Positions 27,733 through 59,759 of a DNA stretch of 64,000 nucleotides are shown piece by piece (positions within the stretch are counted from its first letter, which is position 1; every line of letters begins with the position of its first letter). This DNA is from Candidatus Dormiibacterota bacterium (GTDB lineage: Bacteria > Chloroflexota > Dormibacteria > Aeolococcales > Aeolococcaceae): the NCBI GenBank assembly GCA_963709585.1, contig CAVPXI010000023.1:160001-224000 (forward strand), written 5' to 3'. Made by a program: the position numbers and the translations under genes. The notes beneath the pieces are model-generated. The model worked only from the letters and a program-made list of their open reading frames with translations. It was not told the origin of the DNA and did not search any database.

Positions 27733-28691
27733 TCCCAACTTCGGCGGGCGTGCCCGAGAGGCTGCGCGATGCGCCCGGAACGGCACCCGACGTCACCCCC
27801 GATCCGGCCGGGTCGGTGAGCATCGCGCTCGCCCAGTTCTACCCGCGGCTCGGCGACGTCGCGGCAAATCTCGCCGCCCATCTCACCACCGTCGCCGGCG
27901 CGGCTGCCGAGGGCGCCGGCCTGGTCGTGTTCCCCGAGCTCTCACTCACCGGGTACTTCCTGAAGGACCAGGTGAGTGAGGTGGCGCTGACCATCAACTC
28001 CCCCGAGGTGGGCACCCTCCGCGACGCGTCCCGCGACGGCGGCATCGACATCGTGGCCGGGCTGATCCTCGAGAGCGACCGGCATCGATTCCACAACGCC
28101 GCGCTCTACGTCAGTGGTGGCGAAGTGGTACACGTTCACCGCAAGGTCTATCTGCCGACGTACGGGCTGTTCGATGAGCAGCGATATGTCGCGTCCGGTG
28201 ATCGATTCCGCGCATTCGACGCGCCCCTCGGCCGCCGCACCCAACATCATTGGCGTGCGGGGATTCTCATCTGCGAGGACCTCTGGCATCCGTCGGCCCC
28301 CGCGCTCCTCGCGCGCCAGGGCGTGGACCTGATCATCTGCCCGTCGGCGTCGCCGGGGCGCGGCGTGCTCCAGGGGGACGCAGTCGGCACCGCGAGCAGC
28401 TACGACGTCATGACCCGCACATATGCCCAACTGCTCACCACGTACGTCCTGTACTGCAACCGATCCGGGTTCGAGGACGGCGTGGGCTTCTGGGGCGGGT
28501 CACGCGTGGTCGACCCGGTGGGCAGCGTGGTCGCCGAGCTCCACGGCGCCCAGGAATCCGTGCTCTTCCACAAACTCGAGCGCAGCGCGGTCCGTCGCGC
28601 GCGGGTCGCCTATCCGCTCCTGCGCGACGAACGAAACGATGTCAACGACGCCGAGACCGATCGCCTCCGACGCCGACGCGCTCGCGGTTGA
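27729..28691 (+). CDS. Nitrilase-family glutaminase subunit of NAD synthetase
   Basis: E-K-C triad: [28 protein letters not shown]; overlaps nadE. Confidence 0.88.
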
Positions 28692-29493
28692 CGCCGCCTT
28701 CGTCACCGAGCTGCTCCGCGGCTTCATCGCCGACGGAGTGCGCAAGGTGGGGTTCGAGCGCGTCATCGTCGGGCTCTCCGGTGGCGTCGATTCCTCGCTG
28801 GTGACCGCGCTCGCGGTGTCATCGCTGGGAACGGACAACGTGGTCGCCGTGTTCATGCCGTATCGGAGCAGCGATCCGCAGTCGCAGATCGACGCTCTGG
28901 CGGTGTGCGACAGCCTCGGCATCGCCGTCGAGATCGTCGACATCACGCCCCAGGTGGATGCCTACTTCGCGCGCTTTCCCGATGCGGATCGCACCCGCAG
29001 GGGGAACAAGATGGCGCGCGAACGCATGTCGATTCTCTATGACCACTCGATGGCGGAGCGCGCCTTGGTGCTCGGCACCTCCAACAAGACCGAGTTGCTG
29101 CTCGGGTACGGCACGCTCTTCGGCGACATGGCGAGCGCGCTCAACCCGATCGGCGACCTGTACAAGACACAGGTGTATGCGCTTGCTCGCGCGCTGGGGC
29201 TACCGCACAGCGTGCTCACCAAACCGCCGAGCGCCGATCTCTGGGCCGGGCAGTCTGACGAAGACGAGTTGGGGATGCGCTACGCGGTGGTCGACGCCGT
29301 GCTCCATCTGCTCGTCGACGAGCGGCGCAGCCGGGCGGAAGTGATCGCGCTCGGATTCGACGCCGCCGATGTCGACGCCATCGTCGCGCGGGTGCGGGGC
29401 AGCCAGTACAAGCGCCGGCCACCGGTGATCGCGAAGTTGAGCAACCGCACGATCGACCGGGAGTTCCGCTATCCGCGGGACTGGGGTCGATGA
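28639..29493 (+). CDS. nadE: NAD+ synthetase
   Basis: [37 protein letters not shown]. Confidence 0.95.
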
Positions 29494-33712: not shown

Positions 33713-33901
33713 CTGGTTTTGAATACAGACCAACTGGCTACAGCGGTCCGTTGACTGCCTCCAGAAGAACGTAGGCGCTCAGGAGACATGTTCGGCCATC
33801 GTTATGTGCGCGTAAGCGCAAGGGTACCAGCGCGGATATCATGCACTCCCGCCCAGGAGTGCCGTAGTAGTCGGTGGGTGTATCGATAGCCGGGAGGGGC
33901 G

Positions 33902-34831
33902 ATGCCGAGCGCCGATGAGATCCGAGACAGTCAGCGGGCGGCGTGGGCCGGGCTCTCTTCGGGCTGGGAGAAGTGGGACTCGGTCATCATGGATCAGCTG
34001 GGCCCAGTCAGCGCAGCGATTATCGAGCGTCTCGACATCGCTGAAGATCATCAGCATCTCGACATCGCCACAGGTACGGGTGAGCCGGGTTTGAGCATCG
34101 CAAGACGGTCGCCGAAGGGACGCGTGATGCTGACCGACCTCGTTCCGGAGATGCTGGACATAGCCGCGCGACGAGCCAGGGCGCAAGGGATCGCCAATAT
34201 CGAGACGAAGGTGTGCAGCGCCGATGATCTGCCGTTCAACGACGCCACATTCGATAGCGTGTCCGTGCGTTTTGGGTACATGTTCTTCCCCGACGTGGCC
34301 AAGGCGACGGCCGAGTTCGCGCGCGTGCTCAAGCAGGGCGGACGTCTCTGCTCGTCGGTATGGGTCAAGCCCGAGGAAAACCCGTGGACGATGATCGCCA
34401 TGCGGGCAATCGCGACCGAGGAGGTGGTGGCGCCACCCGACCGGGATGGGCCGAATATGTTTCGGTGCGCTGCCCCAGGATATGTCAGTACCCTGTACGA
34501 GGGCGCGGGGCTGCGCGACGTTGTCGAGTGGGACGTCGACGTCGAACTCGTGACGCGATCGCCCGAGCAGTATTGGGAGATGATCAGCGAGCACGTCTCG
34601 CTCGCCGTTGCGGCGCTTCAGCAGGTCGACGAACCGGCGCGCGAGCGGATTCGGGCAAACGCCATTGCGAAGGTGAGCGCGTTCGAGAAGGACGGCAAGA
34701 TCCGGGTTCCGGGCGTGGCGCGGTGCATCGTCGGAACGAAACAGGATGCGACCGGCACGCGTTCCCGCGACGGCGCGCGATCCACCAACGCGAGCTGGCC
34801 AACCCAGCCGTTGGACGAAGCAGCGCCATAG
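33902..34831 (+). CDS. Class I SAM-dependent methyltransferase (UbiE-like)
   Basis: LDIATGTGEPG, LPFNDATFD, RVLKQGG. Confidence 0.9.
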   Translation: MPSADEIRDSQRAAWAGLSSGWEKWDSVIMDQLGPVSAAIIERLDIAEDHQHLDIATGTGEPGLSIARRSPKGRVMLTDLVPEMLDIAARRARAQGIANIETKVCSADDLPFNDATFDSVSVRFGYMFFPDVAKATAEFARVLKQGGRLCSSVWVKPEENPWTMIAMRAIATEEVVAPPDRDGPNMFRCAAPGYVSTLYEGAGLRDVVEWDVDVELVTRSPEQYWEMISEHVSLAVAALQQVDEPARERIRANAIAKVSAFEKDGKIRVPGVARCIVGTKQDATGTRSRDGARSTNASWPTQPLDEAAP

Positions 34832-34950
34832 CTGCCGATCGGCGCTGCGTCCTTGCGCGATGTAGCGCGCCGGAACGCGCGTCCTCGACGAAGCCGTTCG
34901 GAGACACGGCAAACGTTGGCCGGGACGCTCACTCAGAGTAGGTTTGACAG

Positions 34951-35472
34951 GTGTTCGAGCTGGAGCGGCTTCGCCCCGACCACGAGGCGGCGATCCTCGA
35001 TTTTGAGCTCGCGAACCGCGCGTACTTCGCCGAGTCGATCAGCGATCGTGGCGATGATTTCTATGAGCACTTCGCGGAGAGATACCGCACGCTCCTCGCC
35101 GAGCAAGAAGCCGGGCTCAGCATCGGTCACGTCCTTGTCGATGAGCACGGGACGGTCGTCGGCCGTTTCAACCTGTACGAGCTCGTGGATGGGACCGCGG
35201 AGGTCGGTTATCGCATCGCGCAACTCGTCGCGGGTCGTGGCGTGGCGACGTCCGGATTGCAGCGCATGTGCCGGCTTGCCCGCGATGAGTACGGGCTTCG
35301 GACGCTCTGGGCGTCGACCAGCAACGAGAATGCCGCTTCTAGGCGGGTGCTGACGAGGGCAGGGTTTGTTGGCGTTGGACCGGTTGAGGTTGGCGGCCGG
35401 CAAGGAGCGCGGTATGAGCTCGCGTTGGCGAGCCTCCGACCCACGGAGGTCACCGCTCGAGGGGATCTCTAG
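34951..35472 (+). CDS. GNAT acetyltransferase (RimJ/RimL-like)
   Basis: AEVGYRI...GRGVAT, NAASRRVL.RAGF. Confidence 0.9.
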   Translation: MFELERLRPDHEAAILDFELANRAYFAESISDRGDDFYEHFAERYRTLLAEQEAGLSIGHVLVDEHGTVVGRFNLYELVDGTAEVGYRIAQLVAGRGVATSGLQRMCRLARDEYGLRTLWASTSNENAASRRVLTRAGFVGVGPVEVGGRQGARYELALASLRPTEVTARGDL

Positions 35473-35585
35473 CCGCGACGACGGCAACTCATCGCCTCGG
35501 ACTTGGAGCGGCGCCGCGCTCCCTCAGGTGTTATTGCCGCAAATGGCGGTAACCCACGCGGGGGACCACATTGTCCGTGCTGCGA

Positions 35586-35606
35586 CGAACAGGTGTTTGG
35601 TACAAT
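35586..35606 (+). promoter_or_regulatory. LexA/SOS box (CGAAC-AGGT-GTTTG) abutting an extended -10 (TGG-TACAAT)
   Basis: Gram-positive-type GAAC-N4-GTTY motif directly upstream of the DUF222/HNH gene. Confidence 0.7.
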
Positions 35607-35612
35607 GTGCCA

Positions 35613-36792
35613 ATGGAAGCGTTCGCCGTACCGGATGCGCGAGAGCGTTTAGACGAAGCTGTTCTCGACGCACGCCCTGGGTGCGGACCTGGCCGACATC
35701 CGGCGGGCCGTCGATCGGCTCGAAGCAGAGTTCATCCGTCGCTTGCATCGCTTCCATTGCGCTCGCGGAGCGCTGGCCGATGGCGGGGTGAGCACGGTGT
35801 CCTGGCTGCGATCCAACTGCGGCATGACGGTGAAGGCAGCCGCCTACCGCGTGCACCTGGCACGGATGCTGGGCGAGTTGCCGGCCACGCTCGACAGCGC
35901 CCGTGCCGGTCGCGCCTCCTTCGGCAACGTGACCATGATCGCCCACCTCGCCGAGGATGTCGGCGTGGAGCAGGTGGCGCCGCTCGAGAGCATCCTGGTC
36001 GGAGCGGCCGAGTCGCTCGATCCTGGTGCCATGCGCACCCTCACCCAGGTGACCCGGCTGCGCCTCGACCCCGATGGCGTGCTCGCCGATGACAACCACG
36101 CCCACGAGCGCCGCTGGTTCGAGTGCGACCAGACCTATGGCGGCGTGTTCGTCCTGCGTGGTGAGCTCGATGCCGAAGGCGGTGCGCTGGTGAAGACCGC
36201 GATCGATGCGCTCAGTCACGGTATGAGCCGTGGAGAGACGCGGACGGGGTCGCAGCGCCGTGCCGACGCGCTGGTCGATCTTGCCGCCACCCAGCTGCGC
36301 TGCGGTGACCACCGCGACGTGCACGGGCAGCGGCCGCATCTCATGGTCACGGTGAGCGCGGAAACGCTGCGCTCTGGGGCCGATGCACAGCCTGCCGAGT
36401 TGAGCGGCGTAGGCCCGATCCACCCGGAGACCGCGCGCCGCATCGCCTGTGACGCGGTGCGAACGCTGGTGACGGTTGCGCCGCCTGCTGATGGTTTGGC
36501 CTGGACGGCAAGGAGTACGAGTGTGAGGCCGCTCTCGGTCGGCCGGGCCACACGCACGATCCCCGCACACATCCGCACCGCGCTGAACCTCCGCGACCAG
36601 GGCTGCCGCTTCCCGGGGTGCGACCGCCCGCCGGCGTGGACCGATGGACACCACATCATTTACTGGCCGGACGGTCCAACCGAGGTCGACAATCTGGTCT
36701 CCCTCTGCCGGCCGCACCACCGCGCGGTGCACGAGCAGGGTTGGCGCATCCACATCGCTGACGGAATTGCCGTCGTGGATCCGCCACCCTGA
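35613..36792 (+). CDS. DUF222 (13E12 repeat) / HNH endonuclease; indel near 35670, possibly degenerate
   Basis: QRRADALV, RPHLMVTV, ARRIACDA, RDQGCRFPGC, HHI..W.DG...NLV.LC..HH..VH. Confidence 0.85.
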
Positions 36793-36959
36793 ACGAAAGC
36801 GCGATGCCGCCCAGCGGCGTTTCCGGGACAGCGAGCTCAGCAATCTCGGATGCTGCCGGCCTGGGATGTTGGGACGCGGACGCCGGTCAAAGCCCAGATG
36901 GTCCCGGCCGTCCGCCATGATTCCCTCTGGCTCTATCCGCGGCCAAGGGAGCGTCGAGG

Positions 36960-39900
36960 TTGTCCTGTTCCAACTGTGGGTCCGAGAATCACGCGGGCAG
37001 TAAGTTCTGCAAGCAGTGTGGCGCTGCGATGGCGCGCACCTGTCCGAAGTGCTCTACACCGGTCGACCCGGATGCGAGCTTTTGCAGCGAGTGTGGCGCG
37101 CCCCTGGGGGCCGCACCCACAGGTCGGGTCTTCGCGAGCTCCTCGCCACCGTCGAACGACGCCGACACGGCGACAGCGGAACGCCGGCTGGTCTCGGTGC
37201 TCTTCGCCGACCTGGTGGGCTTTACCGCACTGTCAGAGAAGCGCGATGCGGAGGAAGTGCGCGACCTGCTGACCCGCTACTTCGACACCTGCCGTTCCGT
37301 TGTGAGCCGCTACGGCGGAGTGGTGGAGAAGTTCATCGGGGACGCCGTGATGGCCGTGTGGGGCGCGCCCGCTGCCCACGAAGACGATGCCGAGCGGGCC
37401 GTACGCGCTGCGTTGGATCTGATCGAGGCGGTATCCGCGCTCGGTGGCGAGATCGGGGAGCTTGGGTTGCAGGCCCGGGCCGGGGTACTCACCGGCTCGG
37501 CCGCGGTCACGGTTGGCGCGGACACCCAGGGCATGGTCGCCGGCGACCTGGTCAACACTGCGTCGCGTATCCAAGCCGAGGCTAAGCCGGGCACGGTCCT
37601 CGTCGGCGACGCCACCCGAGGGGCGACTGAAGCGGCCGTGGTGTACGAGGACACCGGCGAGCATTCGCTCAGAGGGAAGGCTGAGCCGATACGCCTGTGG
37701 CGAGCGCGTCGTGTCGTGGCCATGCGTGGTGGCGCGCAGAAATCTGAGGGGCTCGAGGCGCCGTTCGTGGGTCGCGACCGCGAGCTGCGCCTCATCAAGG
37801 ATCTCTTCCACGCCAGTGCGGAACAACACAAAGCCCACCTCGTCTCCGTTGTGGGAATCGCGGGGATCGGCAAGTCGCGGCTCTGCTGGGAGTTCTTCAA
37901 GTACATCGACGGCATCGCTGAAGGAGTCTTTACGCATCGTGGCCGCTGCCTCGCCTACGGCGAGGGCGTGACGTATTGGGCACTGGCGGAGATGGTCCGG
38001 ATGCGCGCACGAATCACAGAGGCAGAGGACCCCGCCTCTGCGCTTGCGAAGCTGCAAGCCTGCGTTGCCGAGTTTGTGCCCGATCCAGATGAGCGGCGCT
38101 GGGTGGAGCCGCGGTTGGCTCAACTCCTGGCTCTCGAGGAGCGCGCTCCCCAGGAACGCGAAGACCTCTTCAGCGCCTGGCGACTTTTCTTCGAACGACT
38201 CGCTGACAGGGAGCCGACGGTGCTGGTATTCGAGGACATGCAGTGGGCGGACACCTCGCTGCTCGAGTTCATCGAATACCTGCTGGAGTGGTCCCGTAAC
38301 CACGCGCTCTTCGTGGTGACCGCTGCTCGGCCGGAGCTGGTCGATCGGCACCCGACCTGGGGAGCGGGCAAGCGCAACTTCACCGCGGTCTTCCTCGAGC
38401 CTCTCGCGGCGACCGCGATGGAACAGCTGCTCGACGGGCTGGTGCCTGGATTGCCCGACGAGCTCCGGGAGCAGATCCTGCAACGGGCGGAAGGGGTCCC
38501 TCTGTACGCAGTGGAAACGGTGCGCATGCTGCTCGATCGCGGCCTGCTCGAGCGCGCCGGAAGCGTGTATCGGCTGACGGGGGCCGTCGAGGACCTGGAG
38601 GTACCCCAAACGCACGGAACTCATTGCAGCTCGCCTTGACGGACTGCGTCCGGAGGCGCGGCGGGTGCTCCAGGACGCGGCTGTTCTCGGCAAGACCTTC
38701 ACGTTGAACTCGTTGGCCGCCGTGACTGGGCTGCCGCCGGTGGACCTCCAGGCGATGCTCACCGAGCTGGTGCGCAAGGAGGTGCTCTCAGTGCAGGCGG
38801 ATCCACGCTCGCCGGAGCGGGGCCAATACGGGTTCCTGCAGGACCTGGTCAAACGGGTGGCCTACGAGACGCTCTCCAAGCGGGATCGGAAAGAAAGGCA
38901 TCTCGCCGTGGCTGCCTGGTACGAGAACTCCTGGGGCGGCGAGGAGAGCGACGTCGTCGAGGTGGTCGCTGCGCACTACCTCGAGGCGTACAACCTCGCT
39001 CCGCAGGATCCCGATGCCGACCGGGTGAAGGACCGCGCCGCGGACGTGCTCTTCCAAGCTGGCGAGCGCGCAGCGTCCCTGGCTGCAAACTCGGAGGCAG
39101 AGCGCTACTTCGAGCAAGCAGCCCGCCTGGTGCCGGACTCGGCACGGCAGGCCGAGATGCACGAACGCGCTGGTCAGATGGCGGCGCGCTCAGGCCGCAA
39201 CGCGGTTGCCATCTCGCACCTGGAACGAGCCATCACGCTGTACGAGAGCGAGAACCTGCCCCACCCGGCGGCACGCGCGCTGTCTCGTTTGGGTCTGGTG
39301 GAGGCCGTGAGCGGGCAGTTGGACCGATCGGTGCAGCGGATGGAGCGCGCGTTCGCGGTTCTGGCCAACGACCCGCCGGATGAGGATCTTGCCACGCTCG
39401 CGGTCCGGCTCGGATCGGTGCTGTATTTCAATGGCGATACCGATACCGCGAGCAAGCGTATCGAGGCCGCGCTCGACATCGCCGAGAAGCTGGGGTTACC
39501 CGAGGTCCTCTCCCAAGCCTTGAACGTTAAGGCCATTCTCGCTATGCAACGCCGGCACGGCGAGGAGGCGATGGCTCTCTTCGCTCATGCGTTGAAGCTT
39601 GGGCTGGACAATGACCTGCCCACAGCCACGATTCGCGCTCATTTCAATCTCGCAGACCTGCTGTGCCAGCGGGACCGCTACGTTGAGGCCCTCGATCATT
39701 ATCGCAGCGCGCTTGCCCTGTCGAGGAAGATCGGAGACAGATCATTCGAGCGCGGCACGATCTGCGACCTTGCGCTGAACCTCGTACGAGTGGGCGAATG
39801 GGATGAGGCCGCCGAATTTGCCGCAACCATCGCCGAAGAGGACATGCGCAGCGCGCCGACGGACGTCATCTCGCTACTTGTTGTCGGTGAGATGTACGCC

Positions 39901-40500
39901 GATCGGGGCCAGATTGTGGAGGTCGAGAACCTTCTGTCCTGGACCGCGCAACTTGCGTCGTCAGATGATTGGCAGGCGCGCACTTCTTTCGTCTCAGGTC
40001 GCGCGTGCCTCCTGCGTGCCCAGGGCAGATACCGCGAGGCGCTCGCGGAGGCCGAGGAGGCGATCAAGGTGGCTGTCGAATTCGGCGGGGTGGGACATCA
40101 GGCCGTCAAGGCCGGATTTCGGACGGCGTGCAACTCTGCGTTCGCCCTGGGCGACACAGCAAAGATGGATGAACTCCTCGCCTTCGTCGACCGTCTTGGT
40201 CCAGGCGAACGGCCACCGTATCTGCATGCTCAAGCGACGCGGTTTCACGCCCGACTAGGCGACACGGAAGCCATTGAACCGTCGTTCATCGAGGCCGAGG
40301 AGAGCTTCGCTGAGCTGGGGATGCCTTTTTGGCTCGCGGTAGTTCGATTTGAGCACGCGGAATGGCTCTCGACAAATGGCAGGCAGGCTGAGGCCACCCC
40401 GATGATGACCCTTGCGACGCAAGAGTTCGAGCGCCTTGAGGCGCGCCCGTGGCTCGACCGCGCGAGGCAATCAGCCCCTGGGGCGGTCACGGTTTCTTGA
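36960..40500 (+). CDS. Double zinc-ribbon / class III nucleotide cyclase / STAND AAA NTPase / TPR protein 1 (indel near 38612)
   Basis: Four CxxC pairs; LFADLVGFT, EKFIGDAVM, GDLVNTASR; GIAGIGKSRL, FEDMQWAD, GVPLY; TPR-like helices in ORF 38665-40500. Confidence 0.92.
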
Positions 40501-40560
40501 TTGCCGGCTGTCATGCGTTCCCCTTCGGGAGAGCCGCCAATACTGACTGGCGGCGGCGGC

Positions 40561-42336
40561 TCACTCCGCGGTGGGCTGACCGAACGCCAGCGAGGCCGAC
40601 GGATGTGTCCGCGCCAGCCGCGCCTGTGCCCTGCCCAGCGCTGAGGGTGACAGGGAGGCGACGGTCATCGCTTCGACAAAGTCGGATCCGTTGATACGGT
40701 AGAGCGTGCAGGGCGCAATCGCTTTCACAGTCGCCGTGCGCGGACGGTGCCCGAGCAGACCGATCTCACCGAAGTAGTTGGGTGGTCCCAACACGCCGAG
40801 CGTATGTTCCGCGCCGGCCTCGCCGGCCGCGAGCACCTCGACCTCGCCGGCTGTGAGCACGAAGAAGTCATCGGCCTCGGCGCCCTCGCGAATCAGCACC
40901 GCGCCAGCTTCGACCGTCTCCTCGACTGCTGATCTCGCCAGGCGCTCCAATGCCGCTCGGGTCGCGCCGGCGAAGATGTCGAGGCTCTGCAGGGCCGTGA
41001 CACGTGGCTCGATCGCGGCCAGTTCGCGCTGCGCTCTTGTGTCGAGTGCCCGGATCCATGGATACGCAGCAACACTCAACGCCGGAATCGCCAATCCCAT
41101 GATCAAGAGCGTCGTGTTCAGCCCGAGGCTGCCGAGGAGGATGGGCATGAGCAATGCGCCCAGCGAGATTGCCGCCAGCACGAGGGCGAAGAAAACCCCG
41201 AAGACTCGCGCGACGACGTCCGGACTCACGAGCCGCTGCAATGCCGTGATCGCCAGCACGTCGACGATGATCGTCCCCCCACCTCGGACCACCTCCAGGA
41301 GAAATGCGATCCATGGTGAATGCACGATCGTCAGGAGCGCAGTTGGCAGGCAAAACACCGCCATCCCGATGACGATGATCGCTCCGAGGCGACGGGCAGC
41401 GGCGATGCGATTCATGAATCCTGCCATCACGATGCCGCCGACGCCGAGCGCCGCGAGCAGGTATCCGTAGCCGGTGCTGCCGGTGCCGAGCTGGTCCTTG
41501 CTCACCACGACGAAGAGCACCGTGTCAGTCCCGTACACGAAGCTCGCGAGGATGCTGAAACCGGCGAGCAGGGTCACGCTGGGGGACGAAACGAAGGCGC
41601 GCATCCCGGCCGCCATCTGCTTGAGTGGCCCGACCGCCCCGCCCTCGGTGATGTCCGACGGACGGCTGCGTATGCGCATGCGGCTCACCACCAGCGCGGA
41701 GAACCCGAAGGTGGCCGCATTGATGGCGAACACCACGGCCGGCGGACTGAACAGCAGCAACACGCCCGCGATTGCCGGGCCGACGATGATGGAGAGGTTC
41801 TCCACGGCAGACTGCGCGCTGTTGGCGGCGGCGAGATGTTCCTCCCCGACGACTGCTGGAGTGGTCGCGCGTGCCGCTGGGTCGTATGAGGACGTGCTCA
41901 CCGACGTCAGAGCGGCAACCGCAATCGCGAGGAGGACGGGCCCATTCAGCGCCGCAACCACGGCCAGAGCCGTCTGGAAGCAGAGCGCGAGCGTATCGAG
42001 AGTCACCATGAGACGCACGCGTTCCATGCGGTCAGCGACCAGCCCACCGATGGGACTGGTGACGAGTGCGGTGAGAAAGCGCGTCATTGAGGCCGCGGCA
42101 ACCCACGCAGGGGAGTGGGTGGCGTTGAAGACGAACACGACCAGGGCGACGTTGTATGCCCACGATCCGCTCATCGAGATGGTGAGCCCGCTGAAGAGTA
42201 GGCGGTAGTCGCGGTTGGCGAACAGCGAGCGATACCCAACTCGCGGTGTCCTCTCGCCGAGCGTGCGTCCGGTGAGCCGCGCAACCACACGGCGCCTGAT
42301 CGAGGGCGGCTTCGGCTCCGTGGCGAGTTCCGTCAT
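40561..42336 (-). CDS. MFS transporter fused to a C-terminal cyclic-nucleotide-binding domain
   Basis: About 12 TM helices with GGLVADRMER; then LIREG...FFVL..GEVEV, YFGEIGLL..RPRTATV. Confidence 0.92.
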   Translation of the reverse strand: MTELATEPKPPSIRRRVVARLTGRTLGERTPRVGYRSLFANRDYRLLFSGLTISMSGSWAYNVALVVFVFNATHSPAWVAAASMTRFLTALVTSPIGGLVADRMERVRLMVTLDTLALCFQTALAVVAALNGPVLLAIAVAALTSVSTSSYDPAARATTPAVVGEEHLAAANSAQSAVENLSIIVGPAIAGVLLLFSPPAVVFAINAATFGFSALVVSRMRIRSRPSDITEGGAVGPLKQMAAGMRAFVSSPSVTLLAGFSILASFVYGTDTVLFVVVSKDQLGTGSTGYGYLLAALGVGGIVMAGFMNRIAAARRLGAIIVIGMAVFCLPTALLTIVHSPWIAFLLEVVRGGGTIIVDVLAITALQRLVSPDVVARVFGVFFALVLAAISLGALLMPILLGSLGLNTTLLIMGLAIPALSVAAYPWIRALDTRAQRELAAIEPRVTALQSLDIFAGATRAALERLARSAVEETVEAGAVLIREGAEADDFFVLTAGEVEVLAAGEAGAEHTLGVLGPPNYFGEIGLLGHRPRTATVKAIAPCTLYRINGSDFVEAMTVASLSPSALGRAQARLARTHPSASLAFGQPTAE

Positions 42337-42419
42337 CGGATGTCGCCGGGCTCCTTGATACCACCGATGGCGGTGCGATTCACCCGCGGAAGCGTACTCG
42401 CCGCGATACTGTCCGCACC

Positions 42420-43307
42420 ATGCGGTTGCGTCTCTGCGGTACGCGAGGGTCCACGCCGGCGCCTGGCATCGATTTCGCCCGTTATGGTGGCCAGACGTCG
42501 TGCGTGGCTGTCATCACGGATGACGGTGAGTGCCGGCTCATCCTCGACGCAGGCACCGGCCTGCGCCGACTGCCGGCCGCGTTGCACGGCAAGCCGTTCA
42601 CAGGCAGCATGCTGCTCACCCATCTGCACTGGGACCATACGCATGGGTTGCCCTTCTGCCCCTCGGTCGACAACCCGGACGCGCACACAACGCTGTACAT
42701 CCCGGAGCAGCCGGGTGGTGACGCCGAGGAGATCCTTGCCCGGGCGATGTCGCCACCGCATTTCCCCATACGCCCTCGCGAGATGCGCGGATCCTGGGAG
42801 TTCAAGCATCTCGCGCCCGGCGAACATCGCATCGAGGGCTTCGATGTCCTCGCGCTGGAGATTCCACACAAAGGGGGGCGAACGTTCGGATACCGGGTTT
42901 CTGACGGTCGGAGTGCCTTCGCCTACATGCCGGACCACGCGCCGGCCTCGCTCGGTCCCGGGCCTGAGCAGTTCGGGCCGTATCACGAGACGGCAGTGCG
43001 CTTGACGCTAGGCGTCGACATGCTACTGCACGATTCGCAATATACGAGCGAAGAATTCCCCGCGCGGGCGCATTTCGGCCACTCCAGCATCGATTACGCC
43101 GTGGGGCTTGCCGTACACGCTGGAGCGCGGCGCTTGGTGCTCTTCCATCACGACCCCTGGCGATCGGACGAGCAACTCGATAGCATCGTCACCCGCTGGT
43201 CCGACGCCTCGCTGCCGGTCACTGCGGCGATCGAGTGGGACATTCTTGACGTCGGCGTTGCCTCCGATGCGCGGCCCCGAGAGGCGCCTGACCGGTCGTC
43301 GGCATAA
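42420..43307 (+). CDS. MBL-fold metallo-hydrolase (RNase Z / cyclic-nucleotide phosphodiesterase-like)
   Basis: GTRGS.P, YGGQTSC, ILDAGTG, THLHWDH, HDSQY, GHS, LFHHDP. Confidence 0.88.
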   Translation: MRLRLCGTRGSTPAPGIDFARYGGQTSCVAVITDDGECRLILDAGTGLRRLPAALHGKPFTGSMLLTHLHWDHTHGLPFCPSVDNPDAHTTLYIPEQPGGDAEEILARAMSPPHFPIRPREMRGSWEFKHLAPGEHRIEGFDVLALEIPHKGGRTFGYRVSDGRSAFAYMPDHAPASLGPGPEQFGPYHETAVRLTLGVDMLLHDSQYTSEEFPARAHFGHSSIDYAVGLAVHAGARRLVLFHHDPWRSDEQLDSIVTRWSDASLPVTAAIEWDILDVGVASDARPREAPDRSSA

Positions 43308-43361
43308 GGCGGGGATCGCCCTGGTTGAGTGCAGCCCGCTGAGAAACGTACCCTTGGCGGC

Positions 43362-46300
43362 GTGATCTGCCCGGCCTGTGGCGCTGAGAATCGGCCCGGC
43401 ATGCGCTTCTGCGGCCAGTGCGGGGGCTCGCTGGCGATCCTCTGTCGAGGGTGCGGAGCAACCAACGACGCCAATCAGCTGTTTTGCGGCCAGTGTGGGG
43501 CGAAGCTCGCAGCGGATCCGGCTGCGAGCAATCCATCGCTGAACACACCCGCGACGAGCAGCCGTCCAGCGGGCGAGCCGTCGCGGCCGGCCTCGGAGCG
43601 GCGTCACATCACCGTGCTCTTCGCGGACCTGGTCGGCTTCACATCGCTGTCAGAGCAACGCGATGCGGAGGATGTCCGCGAGCTGTTGAGTGACTACTTC
43701 GCACTGGCGCGAACGGTCATCGGTCGCTACGGCGGGCGTATCGAGAAGTTCATCGGCGATGCGGTGATGGCCGTGTGGGGCGTCCCGGCCATCCAGGAGA
43801 ACGACGCAGAGCGTGCGGTACGAGCAGCCCTCGAGCTCGTGGACGAGGTATCCGCATTCGGTGAGCGGGCGGGGATACCCGGGCTCCGCGCCCGGGCAGG
43901 CGTACTCACCGGCGAAGCTGCGGTCAACCTCGACGCCGACGACGAGGCCATGGTCGCGGGCGACCTCGTCAACACCGCGAGCAGAGTGCAGTCGGTTGCC
44001 GAGCCGGGCATCGTCTTTGTCGGCGACAGCACTCGGAGCGCGAGCGAGGCCGCCATCGAGTATGTGGACGCGGGGAGCCATCAGCTCAAGGGCAAACCTG
44101 ACCCGATGCGACTCTGGCGCGCGGCTCGGGTGATCGCGGGGGCGGGTGGGGCGCTGCGTCCCACCGGTCTCGAGCCGCCCTTTGTTGGGCGGGAGCGAGA
44201 GCTGCGGCTGCTCAAAGAGTTCCTCCACGCCACGTCAGCGGAGGGTAGGGCACGGCTGCTCTCGGTGGTTGGCCTCGCAGGGGTGGGCAAGTCAAGGCTG
44301 GCCTGGGAGTTTTTCAAGTACATCGACGGGCTCACCGAGACCATCTGGTATCAACGCGGCCGGTGCCTGGCCTACGGCGAAGGTGTGGCGTTCTGGGCGC
44401 TGACCGAGATGGTCCGGATGAGAACCGGGATTGTGGAGAACGAGCCGCCGGACACGGCGAAACAGAAATTGCGTCTGAGCGTCGAGGAGTTCATTCACGA
44501 CGAGGAGGAGCGCGCCTGGGTGGAGCCACGTGTGGCCCATCTTCTCGGGCTCGAGGAGCGCGCCGGCGCCGACCCCCGGGATCTGTACGCGGCCTGGCGG
44601 GTCTTCTTTGAGCGTATGGCGGCGCAGCACACGACGCTGCTCATCTTCGAGGACCTGCAGTGGGCGGACAGCGGACTCCTCGACTTCATCGAGTACCTGC
44701 TCGAATGGTCGCGCAGTTCGCCGATCATGGTGGTCGCCCTCGCTCGTCCCGAACTCGGTGAACGGCGTCCGGGGTGGGGTACCGGCAAGCGAGGCCTCAC
44801 GTCGCTCTTTCTCGAACCACTATCGCCTGATGCGATGGGGCAGCTGCTCACAGGCCTGGTGCCAGGTCTGCCTCAGGATCTGCGCGCGCTCATCCTCGAT
44901 CGGGCCGCCGGCGTCCCCCTGTATGCGGTTGAGACAGTGCGTATGCTCATCGACCGGGGGCTGCTCGTCGAGGATGGCGGCACGTACCGCGCCAAGGGGT
45001 CGTTGGAGGCGCTCGAGGTTCCTGAGAGCCTCCATGCGCTGATCGCAGCGCGCCACGACAGCCTCGCGCCGAGTGAGCGATCGTTGTTGCAGGACGCGGC
45101 GGTCCTGGGCAAGTCGTTCACCGTCGCCGCGCTCAGCGCGGTGACCAACATCCCGGAATCCGACGTCGAGGCGGTGCTCACCTCGCTGGTTGGCAAGGAC
45201 CTGCTCGCGATACAGGCGGACCCGCGCTCGCCCGAGCGCGGCCAGTACGTCTTCGTCCAGGACCTGATCCGCAGCGTCGCCCATGGGACGCTGGCGCGGC
45301 GCGAGCGCAAGTTGCGTCACCTGTCGGCGGCGACGTACCTGGCCGGCTCCCGGATTGACGAGGAGGAGATTGCCGAGGTCGTCGCGGCCCATCTCGTCGA
45401 GGCGTACGACGCCGAACCCGCTGCAGCCGACGCTCCAGAGATTCGCGATCGGGCGCGGCTTGCGCTCGTGCGCGCCGCGGAGCACGCAGACTCGCTCGGC
45501 GGCGCTGCGTCGGCTCAGCGCTATTACGAGCATGCGCTCGAGCTCAGCGGCGATGATGAGACGCGAGCCGACCTCAATCAGAAGGCTGGACTAGCTGCCC
45601 GGTTGCAGGGCCACGGAACGCAGGCGAGAGCGCATTTCGAAACGGCGCAGGATCTGTACGCCGCGACAGGGCGGCCGCTTGGCCGGGCGACGGCGCTCAG
45701 CGAGCTCGGTAAGTGCGACTACGACGATGGCAACCTCGTCGGCGCGTTACAACGCTCGCAGGACGCGCTGGCCGCCATCCCCGAGAGCGGGACCGGTGCA
45801 GAGCATCAGGCGACGCTGGCGTACATCGAGGCAAGGCTCGCGAGGTTCATGTACTTCAGCAGCGATTACGTCTCGGCCCTCCCATACGTCGAGCACGCGC
45901 TGCAGGTTGCCGAGACCGAAGGCTTGTTGGATGTGTTCTGTCTGGCCCTCGATACCAAGGGCGCAATTCTCGCTGCGCGCGGACGTCGCGCCGAGGCTGA
46001 CGTGCTCATCCGCGGGGCACTCGCCGTCGCACTCGAACACGATCTCACCGAGCGCGCCTGCTCGTCGTGCGCCAATCTGGCCTCGACCCTCGAGGAGGAA
46101 GACCGGATCGAGCCTGCACTCGAGATGTACGAGCAGGCCGAGGTGCTCATGCAGCGGCTGGGAGATCGTCCTAATGCTGTCGGCGCCAGGCTGAACCGCG
46201 TCCAGGGGCTTCTCGAGCTCGGCCGATGGGATGAGGTAGAGGCGATGTTCGCCGATTATCTCGAGGCCGACGCTGATGAGCTCGGATCTCGCCTGTGGCC

Positions 46301-46959
46301 GGGCGCGGTCGCGGCCAACGCCACTTGGCTGTTCGTTTACCGCGGCGACGCAGCAGCCGGGCGCCGCCTGGTCGAGCAAAGCGCGCCCCTGGTCGCACAT
46401 TCGCAGCTGGAGATCCGCGCCCAGCATGATGCCGCTCGCGCCGCGGTCGCGAACGCCGACGGTGATCACGTCCTGGCGCTTGCGACGGCGGAGTCAACGC
46501 TTCGAGCCTGTATCGATGAGTCCTTCCCGGTGGGGATGAGGTTAGCTCTCATCGAGGCGGTGGAGGCGGCCTTCTTGCTCGGCCAGGCTTCCAAGGTCGT
46601 GGAGTTGCTGCAGCTGGTGCGAGACAACTTTCGGCCCGGACGCCAGCCGTCGGTTGACGCGCATATTCTCCGATGGGAGGCGCGCATGGCAGCCGCGCTC
46701 GATGACAATGACCGGGCCGGCGGCAAGTTCACCGCCGCGATCGACAAGCTTCGCCCGGTTGCAGCGTCCTTTCTGGCTTGCGGTAACCCGCTGCGAACTT
46801 GGAGAGTGGTTGGTTGCTCAGGGTCGCCAAGCAGACGCCCAGGAGCAGTTGGCCTCTGCTCGCGCAACGTTCGAGCAGCTGCGTGCAATCCCCTGGGTGC
46901 AACGAGCGCGCATCGCGGGGCAGCGGGTGGGGACAGAACCGGCGAGTCTGGCTCAATAG
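43362..46959 (+). CDS. Double zinc-ribbon / class III nucleotide cyclase / STAND AAA NTPase / TPR protein 2 (frameshift near 46747)
   Basis: CxxC pairs; LFADLVGFT, EKFIGD, GDLVNTASR; GLAGVGKSRL, FEDLQWAD; TPR tail ends ...EPASLAQ* in the shifted frame. Confidence 0.92.
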
Positions 46960-46964
46960 CACGA

Positions 46965-47741
46965 TCACGCCGCCTTGATCGCGTAGCCGATGTACGAAAC
47001 GCGCAGGTCCCTGGTCACGACGAAACGCGCTCGCTGACCCAGCTCTCCATATGAGATCCGACCTCTGCGGGCCTGCAGAAGCATGCGGATCAGCTGAGGT
47101 GGTTTCACACCGGGGGCGATGCCGGTCATGTCGCGGCCCTCGAGGCCGTGGCGGCGGAGTATCCCGCTGAGCTCATCCGGGGTGATGAACTGCTCCCAGG
47201 CATGGAGGTTGGGTGGCATCAACCGCGTGAGACGCCAATCCTGGAAGAGCGTGATCATCACCAACTTGCTCGTGCGCGTCCGGTTGATGGTGTCGAACAG
47301 GTAGACACCGCCGGGCCGGAGCACGCGAGCGGTTTCGCTGATGACCGCGTCGAGGTCATCGACGTGCTCGAGCACGTCAACGCAGCAGGCGATGTCCACG
47401 CTCGCCCCGTCGAGCGGAAGATGCTCCCCTGATCCTACGCGATAGTCGATGTGCAGGCCGGCCGCTGCAGCGTGCGAACGCGCCGTGGCGAGCGACGCGG
47501 CGGACGGATCAACCCCGATGACCTGTGCGCCGAGCCGAGCGAGCTCCTCGGCAAACAGGCCGCCACCACAGCCGATGTCCACCACGGTCTTACCGCTTGG
47601 GTCCACGCCGCGATCGCGAAGCACTCGGGTGAAATAGCCGAGCCTTGCCGGGTTGATCGCAGTCCGGATTGCGTTCAAGGGCTGGTGTTCGTCCCACCAG
47701 ATGTCGCCGGACCGGTTGTAGATCTCGTTGTCCACCGGCAT
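46965..47741 (-). CDS. UbiG-like O-methyltransferase
   Basis: WWD.....INPARLGYF, DIGCGGG, VLEHV, TINRT, FITPDEL. Confidence 0.85.
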   Translation of the reverse strand: MPVDNEIYNRSGDIWWDEHQPLNAIRTAINPARLGYFTRVLRDRGVDPSGKTVVDIGCGGGLFAEELARLGAQVIGVDPSAASLATARSHAAAAGLHIDYRVGSGEHLPLDGASVDIACCVDVLEHVDDLDAVISETARVLRPGGVYLFDTINRTRTSKLVMITLFQDWRLTRLMPPNLHAWEQFITPDELSGILRRHGLEGRDMTGIAPGVKPPQLIRMLLQARRGRISYGELGQRARFVVTRDLRVSYIGYAIKAA

Positions 47742-47755
47742 GGTGTGGGGGCTGC

Positions 47756-48454
47756 CTACCGCAGCGGCTCGACAACGGACAGATCGTGGGCGAGGACGAT
47801 GCGTCGCGGGTCGAACTGCAACATCCGATCCATCCAGGCGCAATGCGGTGGAATCTCCGCGTCGTCGCTGTCTCGGTGCGCCACTGCAGCGCGCAAGTCG
47901 GCGGCGAACTCGGTCGCGGTATCGTGCGCTTGACCCGCGAGGACGACGGTGCCGTCGTCGCAACGCACGACAACCGACTGATGCCCCGGCGTGTGTCCTG
48001 GCGTCGGGAGGATCCACAACCCTGGCAGGAGCTCGAGTTCGCCGTCGATGACCTGGTAGTCGGCGTCAGCGAAGTCGACCGCCTCGGAGATGGTGTACCC
48101 GGGTTCACGCGCGCTCGCCAGCTCCGTCGCTTGCACGACGATGGGACGCCCGGCGAACGCCGGATTACCGCCGCAGTGGTCGAAATGCAGGTGACAGTTG
48201 ATGATCCAGCGCACGTCCTCCACTGCCGACCCCACACCGCGCAGCGCCTCTGCGAGGGGTCGCCGCCGCGGACGGTAGTGCGCCTCGGTTTCAGCGTCGG
48301 CGACGCCGAGGCCGGTATCGAACAGAACGAACCCAGCGGGATGGGCGATCAGGTAGCCGAGGAGGGATTCCACGCGCGTTTCGCCGGTCAGGGTTTCCGA
48401 CGCCGGCCGGATGAAGTACCCGAAGTCGACCCGCCGGATCTCGTCGATGATCAC
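47756..48454 (-). CDS. N-acyl-homoserine-lactonase-like MBL hydrolase
   Basis: LFDTG, CHLHFDHCGGN, TPGHTPGHQS, AHD. Confidence 0.82.
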   Translation of the reverse strand: MIIDEIRRVDFGYFIRPASETLTGETRVESLLGYLIAHPAGFVLFDTGLGVADAETEAHYRPRRRPLAEALRGVGSAVEDVRWIINCHLHFDHCGGNPAFAGRPIVVQATELASAREPGYTISEAVDFADADYQVIDGELELLPGLWILPTPGHTPGHQSVVVRCDDGTVVLAGQAHDTATEFAADLRAAVAHRDSDDAEIPPHCAWMDRMLQFDPRRIVLAHDLSVVEPLR

Positions 48455-48467
48455 AGTGGTGTCGGGG

Positions 48468-48968
48468 TCACGTCTCCCTGCTCGGAATCTGCTTGCTCTC
48501 CACGAGGAACGCTTCGAGGTGGGTGACCACGAAGCGGTGGTCCTCGATTTGGGGCAGCCCTGACACCGCCACCGTGCCGATGCACCCGCTGGCTCCGAGC
48601 ATCACCGGAAATGCACCGCCGTGGGCGGCGAACATGCTGACGTCCAGGCGAGAGTCGGTATCGAAGTCGCGGCCGTCGGCGCGGAATGTGCAGCCGACGA
48701 AATACGACGAGTGACCGTAACGCTCGGCGACGGCTGCCTTGCGCGAGAGCCACACGTCGTTGTCCGCCGAGGACCCTGGCAGAGCGGCGTGGAACAGACA
48801 CTGGCCGTTGCGCCGGATCGCGATTGCGACCGGCAGGCGCGCCTCCCGCGCCGCGGCGCGCAGGCGTGACCCGAGCTCCCACGCGACGTCGTGGTCGAAG
48901 CGCGTAAAGACCAGGCGCTCTTCTTCCGCCAGCAGCGCGGCCAGCTGTTCGGCGGCGGCTTCGTTCAC
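48468..48968 (-). CDS. GlcG/HbpS-like (UPF0303) heme-binding-domain protein
   Basis: DNDVW..RK, AAHGGAFP, VAVSGLPQ.EDH. Confidence 0.85.
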   Translation of the reverse strand: MNEAAAEQLAALLAEEERLVFTRFDHDVAWELGSRLRAAAREARLPVAIAIRRNGQCLFHAALPGSSADNDVWLSRKAAVAERYGHSSYFVGCTFRADGRDFDTDSRLDVSMFAAHGGAFPVMLGASGCIGTVAVSGLPQIEDHRFVVTHLEAFLVESKQIPSRET

Positions 48969-52796: not shown

Positions 52797-52884
52797 CTTT
52801 GCAATCCCGGACGAGGCTCCATAGCGAGGCTCTATATTGTCGAGCGCTGATGGCAGTGCGTCGCCGCCGCTTCGCCGTCACCTC

Positions 52885-53811
52885 GTGAAGCGGTTTCACG
52901 CAGTTCCCGCCTCCGAGGAGCGCTACGGCCTCGCCGAGGGTCCGTACTGGGACGGCGACCGAAAGCGGGTGCTCTGGGTCGACATCAACGCCGGAGACGT
53001 GCACACCGCAACCCTCTCCGCGCAGCGTGTGATCCACGAGACGGCGCTGCACCTCCCCGAGACGGTCGGCGCGGTGGTGAGCTCGAGACAGGGTGAGCTC
53101 CTGGTCGCGGGAGCACGACGCCTGTACTACGTGTCTCCCGAGGGTGCCGTCAGCCCCGGCCCGAGCATCCTCCCCGAGCACGTCGACAGCAGGCTGAACG
53201 ACGGCGGGTGCGATCCGGCCGGACGATTTCTGGTGGGCAGCCTTGCCCTCGACGACCGGGCGTACGCGGAGGTCCTGGTCCGGGTGGAAGCGGACGGCCG
53301 GCTCGTGGTGCTCGACGAGGATCTCGGCATGTCAAACGGCCTCGCGTTTTCGCGTCACGGCGACCAGCTCTACAGCGTCGACACCACGCCCGGCATCGTG
53401 TGGGTCCGCGACTACGACTCCGCCGACTGGAGCCGCCGGTCGGCGTCGCGAATTCCTGCGTCTGGAGGGCGACCAACCCGACGGCCTCTGCGTGGACGGT
53501 GAGGGAAACCTCTGGATCGCCATGTGGGGACTTGGGCAGGTGCGCTGCTACTCCCCATCGGGCGCCCACCGTGCGGTCGTCGACGTGGCCGCGCCGAATA
53601 CGACCAGCGCCGCCTTCGTTGGAGCGTCCCTTGACACGCTCCTGATCACCACCGCGTCGGAGCAACTCTCGGACGCGCAGCGCGCGCGATATCCCGACTC
53701 CGGCCGGTTGTTCACCGCCAGAGTCGGCGTGAGCGGGCTGCCCGTGCACCGCTGGGCGGGCTCCAGGGGCGTGCCATCTCCGGCCTCACACTCAAGGCGA
53801 ACACCGCATGA
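52885..53811 (+). CDS. SMP-30/gluconolactonase family lactonase (frameshifts near 53420 and probably near 53765)
   Basis: LAEGPYWD, RLNDG, SNGLAFS; PDGLCVD.EG.LW in the next frame; ends approximate. Confidence 0.85.
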
Positions 53812-57103: not shown

Positions 57104-57148
57104 TGCGACGGCACCACGACGCGTGCACAGCGTGGTCCACTGTGACCG

Positions 57149-59490: not shown

Positions 59491-59759
59491 CGTGCAACTC
59501 TGCGACTTAACGGCCGCCTGTGGCTCTGATGAGCAAAGCAAGCCTCGAAACTTGACCATTCCAGTCTGGATTTGCTACCGTCGGTGGCGATGGGCGCCCC
59601 GGTTTACGGATTGACGCGCTGCCTGTGGCTCGACGACGGCTGTTGCGGCTCCGCCATCTGTAGTCGCTGATCAGCGACCCGCCGTCACGTCCGCTCACGA
59701 GGGTGCGACCCGTGGACATCAATGCCACTCATCAACCGTCGTTCAAATGAGGTTATGTC

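Follow-up and report, generated by a model that had tools for sequence, protein, structure and literature searches.

In mycobacteria, proteins such as Rv0386, Rv1358 and Rv2488c join a class III nucleotide cyclase to an AAA/STAND (signal transduction ATPases with numerous domains) ATPase, tetratricopeptide repeats (TPR) and a LuxR helix-turn-helix (HTH) domain. STAND proteins oligomerise in an NTP-dependent manner on binding a ligand, and class III cyclases are active as dimers. Fusions of a major facilitator superfamily (MFS) transporter with a cyclic-nucleotide-binding (CNB) domain, here MFS-CNB, are exemplified by Rv3728 and Rv3239c of Mycobacterium tuberculosis and, to our knowledge, no MFS transporter with a domain of this kind has been characterised. 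A review lists these fusions, as MFS-CNBD, alongside PAS and UspA fusions; the portion of it drawn on here says that a part in regulating transporters has been characterised for none of the UspA fusions, and it cites no work on those with a CNBD (PMC10710835). Atypical class II phosphodiesterases of cyclic nucleotide monophosphates (cNMPs) are defined, in the part of the source used here, by membership of PF12706 together with the motif [T/S]HxHxDH and include Rv1339, YhfI and CpdA (PMC9293780). Here we describe a locus that brings together cyclase-STAND, MFS-CNB and PF12706 proteins, all of them known as parts, in four neighbouring genes: two paralogous STAND cyclases (cycA and cycB), an MFS-CNB transporter and a metallo-beta-lactamase (MBL) fold hydrolase. 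It occupies positions 36960-46959 of a 64,000-nucleotide stretch, hereafter the window, of contig CAVPXI010000023.1 (positions 160,001 to 224,000 of the forward strand, assembly GCA_963709585.1). The host is an uncultured soil bacterium of Candidatus Dormibacterota, represented by a metagenome-assembled genome (MAG) of 3.52 Mb in 24 contigs that is 88.8% complete.

The conserved core of the locus is the pair formed by a STAND cyclase gene and the MFS-CNB gene, which recurs in Dormibacterota and in MAGs labelled Actinomycetota. The MBL gene is a late addition to this pair, made only in the subclade of the window and drawn from a protein family that is itself linked to cNMP genes. We consider, with a probability of about 0.6, that the locus serves physiological cyclic-nucleotide signalling, most likely by cyclic AMP (cAMP), and it has the look of an ordinary, though uncharacterised, second-messenger circuit and not of an antiviral one. 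A first-pass annotation of the window had proposed a self-contained writer-reader-eraser module with a two-input sensor, of either physiological or anti-phage function. Its description of the genes held up well: the coordinates, domains and motifs of the four genes were recovered by open reading frame (ORF) calls and a Pfam scan, and the genes are contiguous within 10 kb with gaps below 90 bp. The interpretation required more revision, as set out below.

Orthologues of the MFS-CNB protein were found in 19 of 24 genomes of the genus (74-86% identity) and, at about 51-58% identity, in 13 or 14 of the 16 sister-family genomes. One to three STAND cyclases adjoin the transporter gene in 13 of the 14 genus loci that were fetched, as against one of six loci from the sister family. 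The cyclases at the relatives' loci, one to three paralogues, belong to different paralogue groups, so that they appear to be parallel sensors rather than parts of a fixed device with two inputs, and the two-input sensor of the first-pass annotation finds no support.

A wider scan of GTDB, with one genome per species and an alignment of 10 orthologues as the query, yielded 231 confirmed loci, the best 80 of which were analysed for their neighbours. A STAND cyclase was counted when at least 1 kb of sequence matched, and it was taken as directly adjacent when it lay within 700 bp. On this basis a STAND cyclase is directly adjacent to the MFS-CNB gene at 39 of the 80 loci and present within 10 kb, though not adjacent, at a further 16. 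The loci were grouped by MFS-CNB identity and by record label and, since related genomes are not independent, only raw counts are given: at identities of at least 84% there are 11 loci (cyclase adjacent in 6, within 10 kb only in 4), at 69-83% there are 28 (15 and 9), at 53-63% there are 22 (7 and 3), and the Actinomycetota-labelled group, mostly Solirubrobacterales and Thermoleophilaceae, comprises 19 (11 and 0). The MFS-CNB proteins of this last group, mostly from Thermoleophilia MAGs, are 49-56% identical to that of the window. Four relative orientations of the two genes occur among the 80 loci: in the clade of the window the cyclase is downstream of the transporter gene and convergent with it, in other Dormibacterota it shares the strand of that gene, either upstream or downstream, and in Thermoleophilia it is upstream and divergent. 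The adjacent cyclases share the succession of DZR, Guanylate_cyc, AAA_16 and TPR domains, as judged from a Pfam scan of 39 neighbouring ORFs at 17 loci. A conserved pairing of this type of cyclase with this type of transporter was not found described in the literature searched.

Both cyclases have their catalytic residues in place, in agreement with the first-pass annotation, which had noted a paralogous zinc ribbon, cyclase, STAND and TPR pair with intact catalytic and Walker residues. Their cyclase domains score far above the cut-off of PF00211 (21.9 bits; scores in Table 1), with one metal-binding Asp in FADLVGF, the second in FIGDAV, and the Asn and Arg in VNTASR. These four residues align with the same residues of the structures 2W01, 6FHT and 3R5G and are conserved in 11 related proteins, all of them STAND cyclases of Dormibacterota or Actinomycetota-labelled MAGs. 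A Lys (EKFIGD) occupies the first specificity position, where the alignment places Glu in 2W01 and Lys in the chimera 6FHT; we take 2W01 to be the guanylyl cyclase Cya2 and 6FHT its adenylyl-converted form. This Lys suggests that cAMP is probably the product, an assignment which is not secure for the reason given below.

The AAA_16 (PF13191) regions contain the GxxGxGKS and hhhhED motifs, the Walker B sequences being LVFEDMQW in cycA and LIFEDLQW in cycB. They are followed by a repeat region in which the MalT-type TPR model PF17874 scores 43.6 and 32.4 bits (cut-off 45) and TPR_12 exceeds its own cut-off. The model TIGR03903, named "TOMM system kinase/cyclase fusion protein", spans the cyclase, ATPase and repeat stretch at 177-214 bits, below its cut-off. 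The similarity of the N-terminal halves and the divergence of the TPR tails, both noted earlier, amount to 60% and 38% identity, respectively. A literature search on STAND/TPR/AAA cyclases found nothing specific among the papers listed; no paper was found on adenylate cyclase in Dormibacterota and, among the papers listed for "Dormibacter" and cAMP, none was relevant by title or abstract.

The transporter matches MFS_1 (PF07690, 98 bits) and MFS_3 (PF05977, 97.7 bits), both above the cut-offs and spanning about 380 residues. TIGR00900 (163 bits; cut-off 319.6) and the EntS model (96 bits; cut-off 324) match below theirs. The C-terminal PF00027 match clearly exceeds its cut-off of 27.5 bits, and its phosphate-binding cassette, Glu and Arg included, does not vary among 10 MFS-CNB orthologues (54-85% identity).

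The MBL protein belongs to PF12706 (65.4 bits) and carries the motif THLHWDH, and it thus fits both the family membership and the [T/S]HxHxDH signature given, in the part of the source used, for atypical class II cNMP phosphodiesterases (PMC9293780). Its predicted metal ligands H68, H70, D72, H73, H150 and the bridging D172, together with a later His, are invariant in 35 homologues. An AlphaFold model (mean pLDDT 85.1) gave, as the best Foldseek matches in the PDB, ELAC1 (3ZWF), RNase Z (1Y44), YhfI (6KNS), a PhnP-family diphosphatase (6B9V) and PhnP (3G1P), with YhfI among the three best (E 1.2e-11, TM 0.66/0.80); on the strength of these model-based matches the protein is placed in the phosphodiesterase branch of the MBL fold. 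Comparison with the PDB by single sequence and by a profile of the 35 homologues gave only RNase Z/ELAC motifs, YhfI being absent at E ≤ 1, and an ESM Atlas look-up returned only unnamed "MBL fold metallo-hydrolase" clusters. A possible kinship with Apyc1 was dropped: although some homologues bear precomputed flags for PF23023, neither the window protein nor four relatives match that model at E ≤ 10. In the literature on clusters of MBL fold, CNB and cyclase genes only the paper on Rv1339 was relevant, and a link of this MBL clade to CNB genes was not found described in the literature searched.

Within the genus an MBL orthologue is present in 10 of 25 genomes and adjoins the MFS-CNB gene in six of these ten. 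In L065, from a second lineage of Dormibacterota, it is found at the opposite flank of the MFS-CNB gene. At two loci of relatives (L033 and L034) the MBL gene stands between a DUF222 gene and genes for carbonic anhydrase, threonyl-tRNA synthetase (ThrRS) and translation initiation factor IF3, the same genes that flank the wider region in the window, and DUF222 is directly beside the MBL gene in the relatives G004 and G014. From this shared backbone it follows that, in the subclade of the window, cycA with the MFS-CNB gene, and cycB with about 13 kb of further genes, sit as insertions to either side of the MBL gene.

In the Actinomycetota, outside the phylum of the host, an MBL orthologue was found at E ≤ 1e-60 in 17 of 301 evenly drawn genomes, a tally that includes three unpublished genomes. 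Thirteen of these MBL loci, with orthologues 50-59% identical to the window protein, were fetched and scanned. A cNMP_binding gene lies directly beside the MBL gene in 11 of the 13; in eight it directly precedes the MBL gene on the same strand (gaps from about -1 to less than 100 bp), in one the two share a frame, and in two they are divergent. The single-frame case (L136:8017-9789, minus strand) joins cNMP_binding and Lactamase_B_2 in an open frame of 591 amino acids and is either a natural fusion or an assembly artefact. A class III cyclase occurs within 5 kb of the MBL gene in eight of the 13 loci, six being of the response-regulator type and two of the STAND type.

In a recurrent operon (L137, L139, L141, L143, L146, L147) the genes for a response-regulator cyclase and the MBL protein are joined by one for a CNB protein that has about 250-385 amino acids and an N-terminal part to which no domain is assigned. 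A flavin amine-oxidase-like protein is added except in L146, a cupredoxin-like protein is encoded between the cyclase and CNB genes in L137, L139, L141 and L147, and ABC/FtsX transporter genes are often nearby. In one actinomycetotal genome (G137, L138:3173-12581) a STAND cyclase, a CRP-type regulator, a CNB protein, the MBL protein, an S8 peptidase, a GAF protein and an MFS-CNB protein are all encoded within 10 kb. The STAND cyclase is 65% identical to the N-terminal half of cycA and the MFS-CNB protein 41% identical to that of the window, and this locus combines the genes of the window with those of a second cluster in the host genome described below. The recurrence of MBL orthologues beside cNMP-binding genes and class III cyclases supports a phosphodiesterase role, and the MBL protein is therefore a predicted 3',5'-cNMP phosphodiesterase on the combined evidence of motif, fold and conserved neighbourhood. 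Thus the search for co-occurrence of the gene families elsewhere gave a divided answer to the writer-reader-eraser proposal: the cyclase and MFS-CNB pair is conserved and the MBL subfamily keeps company with cNMP-binding genes, but the MBL gene joined the pair late and only in the subclade of the window.

The host genome shows that the locus does not stand alone. There are 13 places that match the cyclase and STAND parts of cycB, plus six partial matches, and 14 matches to PF00027, 12 of them above the cut-off. A second cluster on contig C6 (223500-236500, L150) encodes a CRP-type regulator (CNB and HTH_Crp_2), an S8 peptidase, a small CNB protein and a STAND cyclase which is the closest paralogue of cycB (71% identical) and is likewise split as assembled. 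About 30 kb from this cluster lies a second PF12706 enzyme (C6:196080-196739, L151) with the motif THFHADH, which shares motif-level likeness only with the window MBL protein. With 13 STAND-cyclase loci, 12 CNB domains and a second candidate enzyme in the genome, the locus cannot be called self-contained as first proposed. With 13 such cyclase places in 3.5 Mb, the clustering of its four genes is well above chance.

We envisage the following scheme. The cycA and cycB products would act as MalT-like STAND proteins, each expected to bind a ligand through its TPR array, and NTP-dependent oligomerisation may, by analogy with other STAND proteins and class III cyclases, bring the cyclase domains together as active dimers. 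The divergence of the TPR halves suggests that the paralogues probably sense different ligands and feed one local signal. The cAMP produced would bind the C-terminal CNB domain of the neighbouring EntS/DHA3-like transporter and switch transport post-translationally; that the transporter acts in export is a guess from family likeness. The MBL enzyme, of the RNase Z/PhnP/YhfI branch, would hydrolyse the cyclic nucleotide and reset the signal, a role to which its motif, fold and neighbourhood point.

Several findings weigh against this scheme. The related genomes behind the comparative counts are not independent samples, and a STAND cyclase within 10 kb is missing at 25 of the 80 MFS-CNB loci, at seven of which less than 1.5 kb of flanking sequence is available on one side. 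Where characterised adenylyl cyclases have Asp or Thr at the second specificity position, these cyclases have Met, replaced by Leu in some relatives, and it is this that makes the product assignment insecure. Most of the adverse evidence concerns the MBL protein. No orthologue was found in the 16 sister-family genomes; in four of the ten genus genomes that have one it lies elsewhere, with no cyclase or MFS-CNB gene in the fetched stretch; and among the 80 loci it adjoins the MFS-CNB gene only in the clade with at least 84% identity (11 of 11) and in the next group (two of 28). In fold it stands no nearer to YhfI than to RNase Z. It falls outside the NCBIfam family NF041851, "cyclic nucleotide-degrading phosphodiesterase" (32.6 bits over a full-length alignment; cut-off 400), which we assume to stand for the Rv1339 family, and the second PF12706 enzyme on contig C6 is closer to that family and is the best match of the genome (92 bits).

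These last points lend some force to the view that the cyclase and MFS-CNB genes form a real unit while the MBL enzyme acts on something else, for instance the 3' ends of RNA, a phosphodiester of the 2',3'-cyclic or phosphonate type or some other small molecule, and came to its present position by a recent rearrangement. The restriction of the adjacency to the subclade of the window and two further loci, the equal closeness of the fold to RNase Z, ELAC1 and PhnP, the score far below the NF041851 cut-off, the names PhnP or RNase BN given to homologues by some sources, and the backbone genes shared between the window and the separate MBL site of L033 and L034 are all as expected on that view. 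It is harder to reconcile with the [T/S]HxHxDH signature, with the second, differently arranged adjacency to an MFS-CNB gene in L065 and with the Actinomycetota neighbourhoods, where the MBL gene has a CNB gene directly beside it in all but two of the loci, in one case within a single frame, and often a class III cyclase close by. We therefore regard a different substrate as unlikely, while accepting it as a stronger contender than an anti-phage function.

Coupling between the genes might also be denied altogether, the locus being no more than a tandem duplication of an abundant cyclase family beside an unrelated transporter. With so many cyclase loci and CNB domains in the genome some adjacency is to be expected, synteny among close relatives can reflect descent, and a substantial minority of MFS-CNB loci lack a nearby cyclase. 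Yet a rough estimate from 13 loci among about 3000 genes gives a chance adjacency of less than 1% per gene, the two genes are found together repeatedly, and in four orientations, across Dormibacterota and Actinomycetota-labelled MAGs, and a transporter with a cNMP-binding domain beside an enzyme that makes cNMPs is a direct functional match, so that we judge mere coincidence very unlikely. Least probable of all, in our estimation, is the anti-phage role that the first-pass annotation had entertained, in which an NLR-like STAND-TPR protein detects a phage protein and the cyclic nucleotide triggers a membrane effector, as in Pycsar, leading to cell arrest or death. PADLOC models do match: the cyclase domains score 63.6 and 66.9 bits with PycC, and the CNB domain 38.5 bits with Pycsar effector models, but the matches are limited to these generic domains. 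The divergence of the TPR halves, the varying number of paralogues among relatives and a third-position GC content slightly below that of the flanks could be read in the same sense. Against this, the MFS-CNB gene is present in most genomes of the genus, where the pair is syntenic, and of the sister family, unlike the patchy spread typical of defence genes; the flanking genes are housekeeping and metabolic, with no recognised defence family in a Pfam scan; the specificity Lys points to a purine nucleotide; and a host phosphodiesterase in an operon with a cyclase would blunt an abortive-infection signal. The putative effector, moreover, is a complete EntS/DHA3-type transporter, whereas Pycsar effectors, as far as we know, have only a few membrane helices.

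On the integrity of the two cyclase genes, the first-pass annotation was silent about one frameshift in each of them in the window as assembled. cycA is split into two ORFs (36960..38639 and 38665..40500, of 559 and 611 amino acids) with the frame change near 38610-38620, and cycB loses its frame beyond about 46748, continuing as a meaningless tail as far as 47054. Public Logan contigs from runs X1, X2 and X3, all of one study, differ from the window by an extra G after 38610, an extra CT after 38611 and a missing base at 38618, and those from X1, X2, X3 and X5, of two studies, have one base fewer at 46748; X1 is possibly the sample of origin and hence not fully independent, and X5 comes from a different study. 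When these indels are applied by script, cycA reads through and cycB ends at 46959, and the restored cycA junction ...EVPQSLHGLIAARLDGL... parallels ...EVPESLHALIAARHDSL... of cycB. The cycA orthologues in three relatives (L013, L016, L037) are in a single frame across the break point, as judged from the coordinates of high-scoring segment pairs. Since the public contigs restore both frames and the cycA orthologues are uninterrupted, both breaks are assembly errors and the two genes are intact in the population; a pseudogene reading was rejected because of the compensating indels at both breaks.

Elsewhere in the window, an NadE-like gene (27681-29490) has its CN_hydrolase and NAD_synthase parts in overlapping frames (27681-28688 and 28414-29490), and shortened Pfam matches occur in several other genes, among them SGL (52825-53499), Amidohydro_3 (56231-57208) and Pro_CA (59751-60302). 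These split and truncated genes imply that the assembly may contain further indel errors.

The features of the locus are listed in Table 1. The spacers are 60 bp between the convergent cycA and MFS-CNB genes, 83 bp between the divergent MFS-CNB and MBL genes, and 21 bp between the MBL gene and cycB, which lie on the same strand and are probably co-transcribed. A promoter and terminator scan of 35400-47600 gave one promoter-like and four terminator-like sites, no more than in shuffled sequence, and inspection of the 83-bp divergent spacer by eye revealed no feature. The third-position GC content of the ORFs is 0.75-0.79 across 33890-48000, compared with 0.80-0.89 in most flanking ORFs.

Table 1. 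Genes, domains and motifs of the cyclase, MFS-CNB and MBL locus, in window coordinates
Feature	Position	Strand	Evidence
cycA: DZR/Zn-ribbon, class III cyclase, AAA_16 STAND, TPR_12 and TPR_2	36960..40500	+	Pfam; 1180 aa in public-contig frame
cycA cyclase catalytic domain (residues 77-242)	37188..37685	+	PF00211, 77.8 bits; D, K, D, N, R in place
cycA AAA_16 (STAND NTPase), Walker A GIAGIGKS	37761..38294	+	PF13191, 89 bits; translation
MFS_1/MFS_3 transporter (EntS/DHA3-like) with C-terminal cNMP_binding, 591 aa	40561..42336	-	Pfam; orthologues in relatives
cNMP-binding domain (residues 473-557), phosphate-binding cassette FGEIGLL...RTATV	40666..40920	-	PF00027, 77.2 bits
MBL-fold Lactamase_B_2 hydrolase, 295 aa, candidate cyclic-nucleotide phosphodiesterase	42420..43307	+	Pfam, model, Foldseek, orthologue neighbourhoods
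MBL metal-binding motif HLHWDH (H68-H73), preceded by Thr67	42621..42638	+	Translation; columns invariant in 35 homologues
cycB: paralogue of cycA, identical architecture	43329..46959	+	Pfam; 1209 aa in public-contig frame
cycB cyclase catalytic domain (residues 90-257)	43596..44099	+	PF00211, 78.4 bits; alignment to 2W01, 6FHT, 3R5G
cycB AAA_16 (STAND NTPase), Walker A GLAGVGKS	44178..44735	+	PF13191, 76.6 bits

At its left edge the cluster is bordered by the DUF222 gene (35653-36792), and the carbonic anhydrase, ThrRS and IF3 genes lie at 59.7-64 kb of the window. A Pfam scan of the flanking genes found methyltransferases, a GNAT protein, oxidoreductases and tRNA synthetases, and no phage genes were seen in it around the MBL gene, which is chromosomal. 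Immediately downstream of cycB and convergent with it, the minus-strand region 46965-48601 encodes a UbiG-like methyltransferase (TIGR01983, 154 bits, above the cut-off) and a second MBL protein of the N-acyl-homoserine lactone (AHL) lactonase type (AiiA model 105 bits, below the cut-off); neither gave a tblastn match of at least 80 bits in the 20 relatives' loci fetched.

Bacterial cAMP signalling beyond the CRP paradigm is poorly understood, and this is notably so for the large sensor-type cyclases that have multiplied in soil Actinomycetota and their neighbours. The pairing of cyclase and MFS-CNB genes offers a concrete and testable case of a second messenger directly gating a secondary transporter and, if the scheme is correct, an NLR-like oligomerisation triggered by ligand would lead to a burst of cAMP and to post-translational gating of the MFS protein. 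The MBL subfamily would extend the short list of bacterial cAMP erasers by a candidate family whose genomic signature is clear. In sequence it would differ from Rv1339, CpdA and YhfI as well as from Apyc1, and it would be hard-wired genomically to cNMP-binding proteins, the genes being translationally coupled or fused in Actinomycetota. That the MBL protein founds a new family of cNMP phosphodiesterases and that the cyclase and MFS-CNB genes constitute a conserved two-gene unit of cAMP-gated transport is, as a joint proposal, put forward tentatively and at slightly under even odds.

When set beside the systems described to date, the locus resembles Pycsar in that a gene for a class III-type cyclase stands beside one for a membrane protein with a cNMP-binding domain, a likeness that the PADLOC domain matches reflect. 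It differs in that the cyclase, which carries the purine-type Lys, is part of a STAND-TPR sensor protein, the membrane protein is a full MFS transporter, and the genes form a syntenic core of the genus together with a host phosphodiesterase candidate and not a patchy defence pair. With Apyc1, the phage anti-Pycsar phosphodiesterase, the window MBL protein shares the HxHxDH MBL fold (PDB 7U2S at Foldseek rank 40, E 1.6e-8); in fold it is far nearer to RNase Z, YhfI and PhnP than to Apyc1, and it is encoded on a chromosome. It agrees with Rv1339 of M. tuberculosis, CpdA of Corynebacterium glutamicum and YhfI of Bacillus subtilis, as these are described in the part of PMC9293780 used here, in PF12706 membership, the [T/S]HxHxDH motif and a size near 270-295 amino acids, but sequence likeness, as judged from the profile comparison with YhfI and from NF041851, is at motif level only.

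The cycA and cycB proteins follow the Rv0386-type cyclases in having an N-terminal class III cyclase, then an AAA_16 STAND NTPase and then a helical-repeat sensor region. They depart from that type in their N-terminal double zinc ribbon, in the specificity pair Lys/Met and in lacking the C-terminal LuxR/GerE DNA-binding domain, for which reason their output would be the cyclic nucleotide alone. The transporter, finally, is built like the MFS-CNBD fusions, with an MFS core and a C-terminal CNB domain, and what sets it apart from those fusions, as they are listed in the portion of the review drawn on here (PMC10710835), is that it has a conserved genomic partner, the STAND cyclase.

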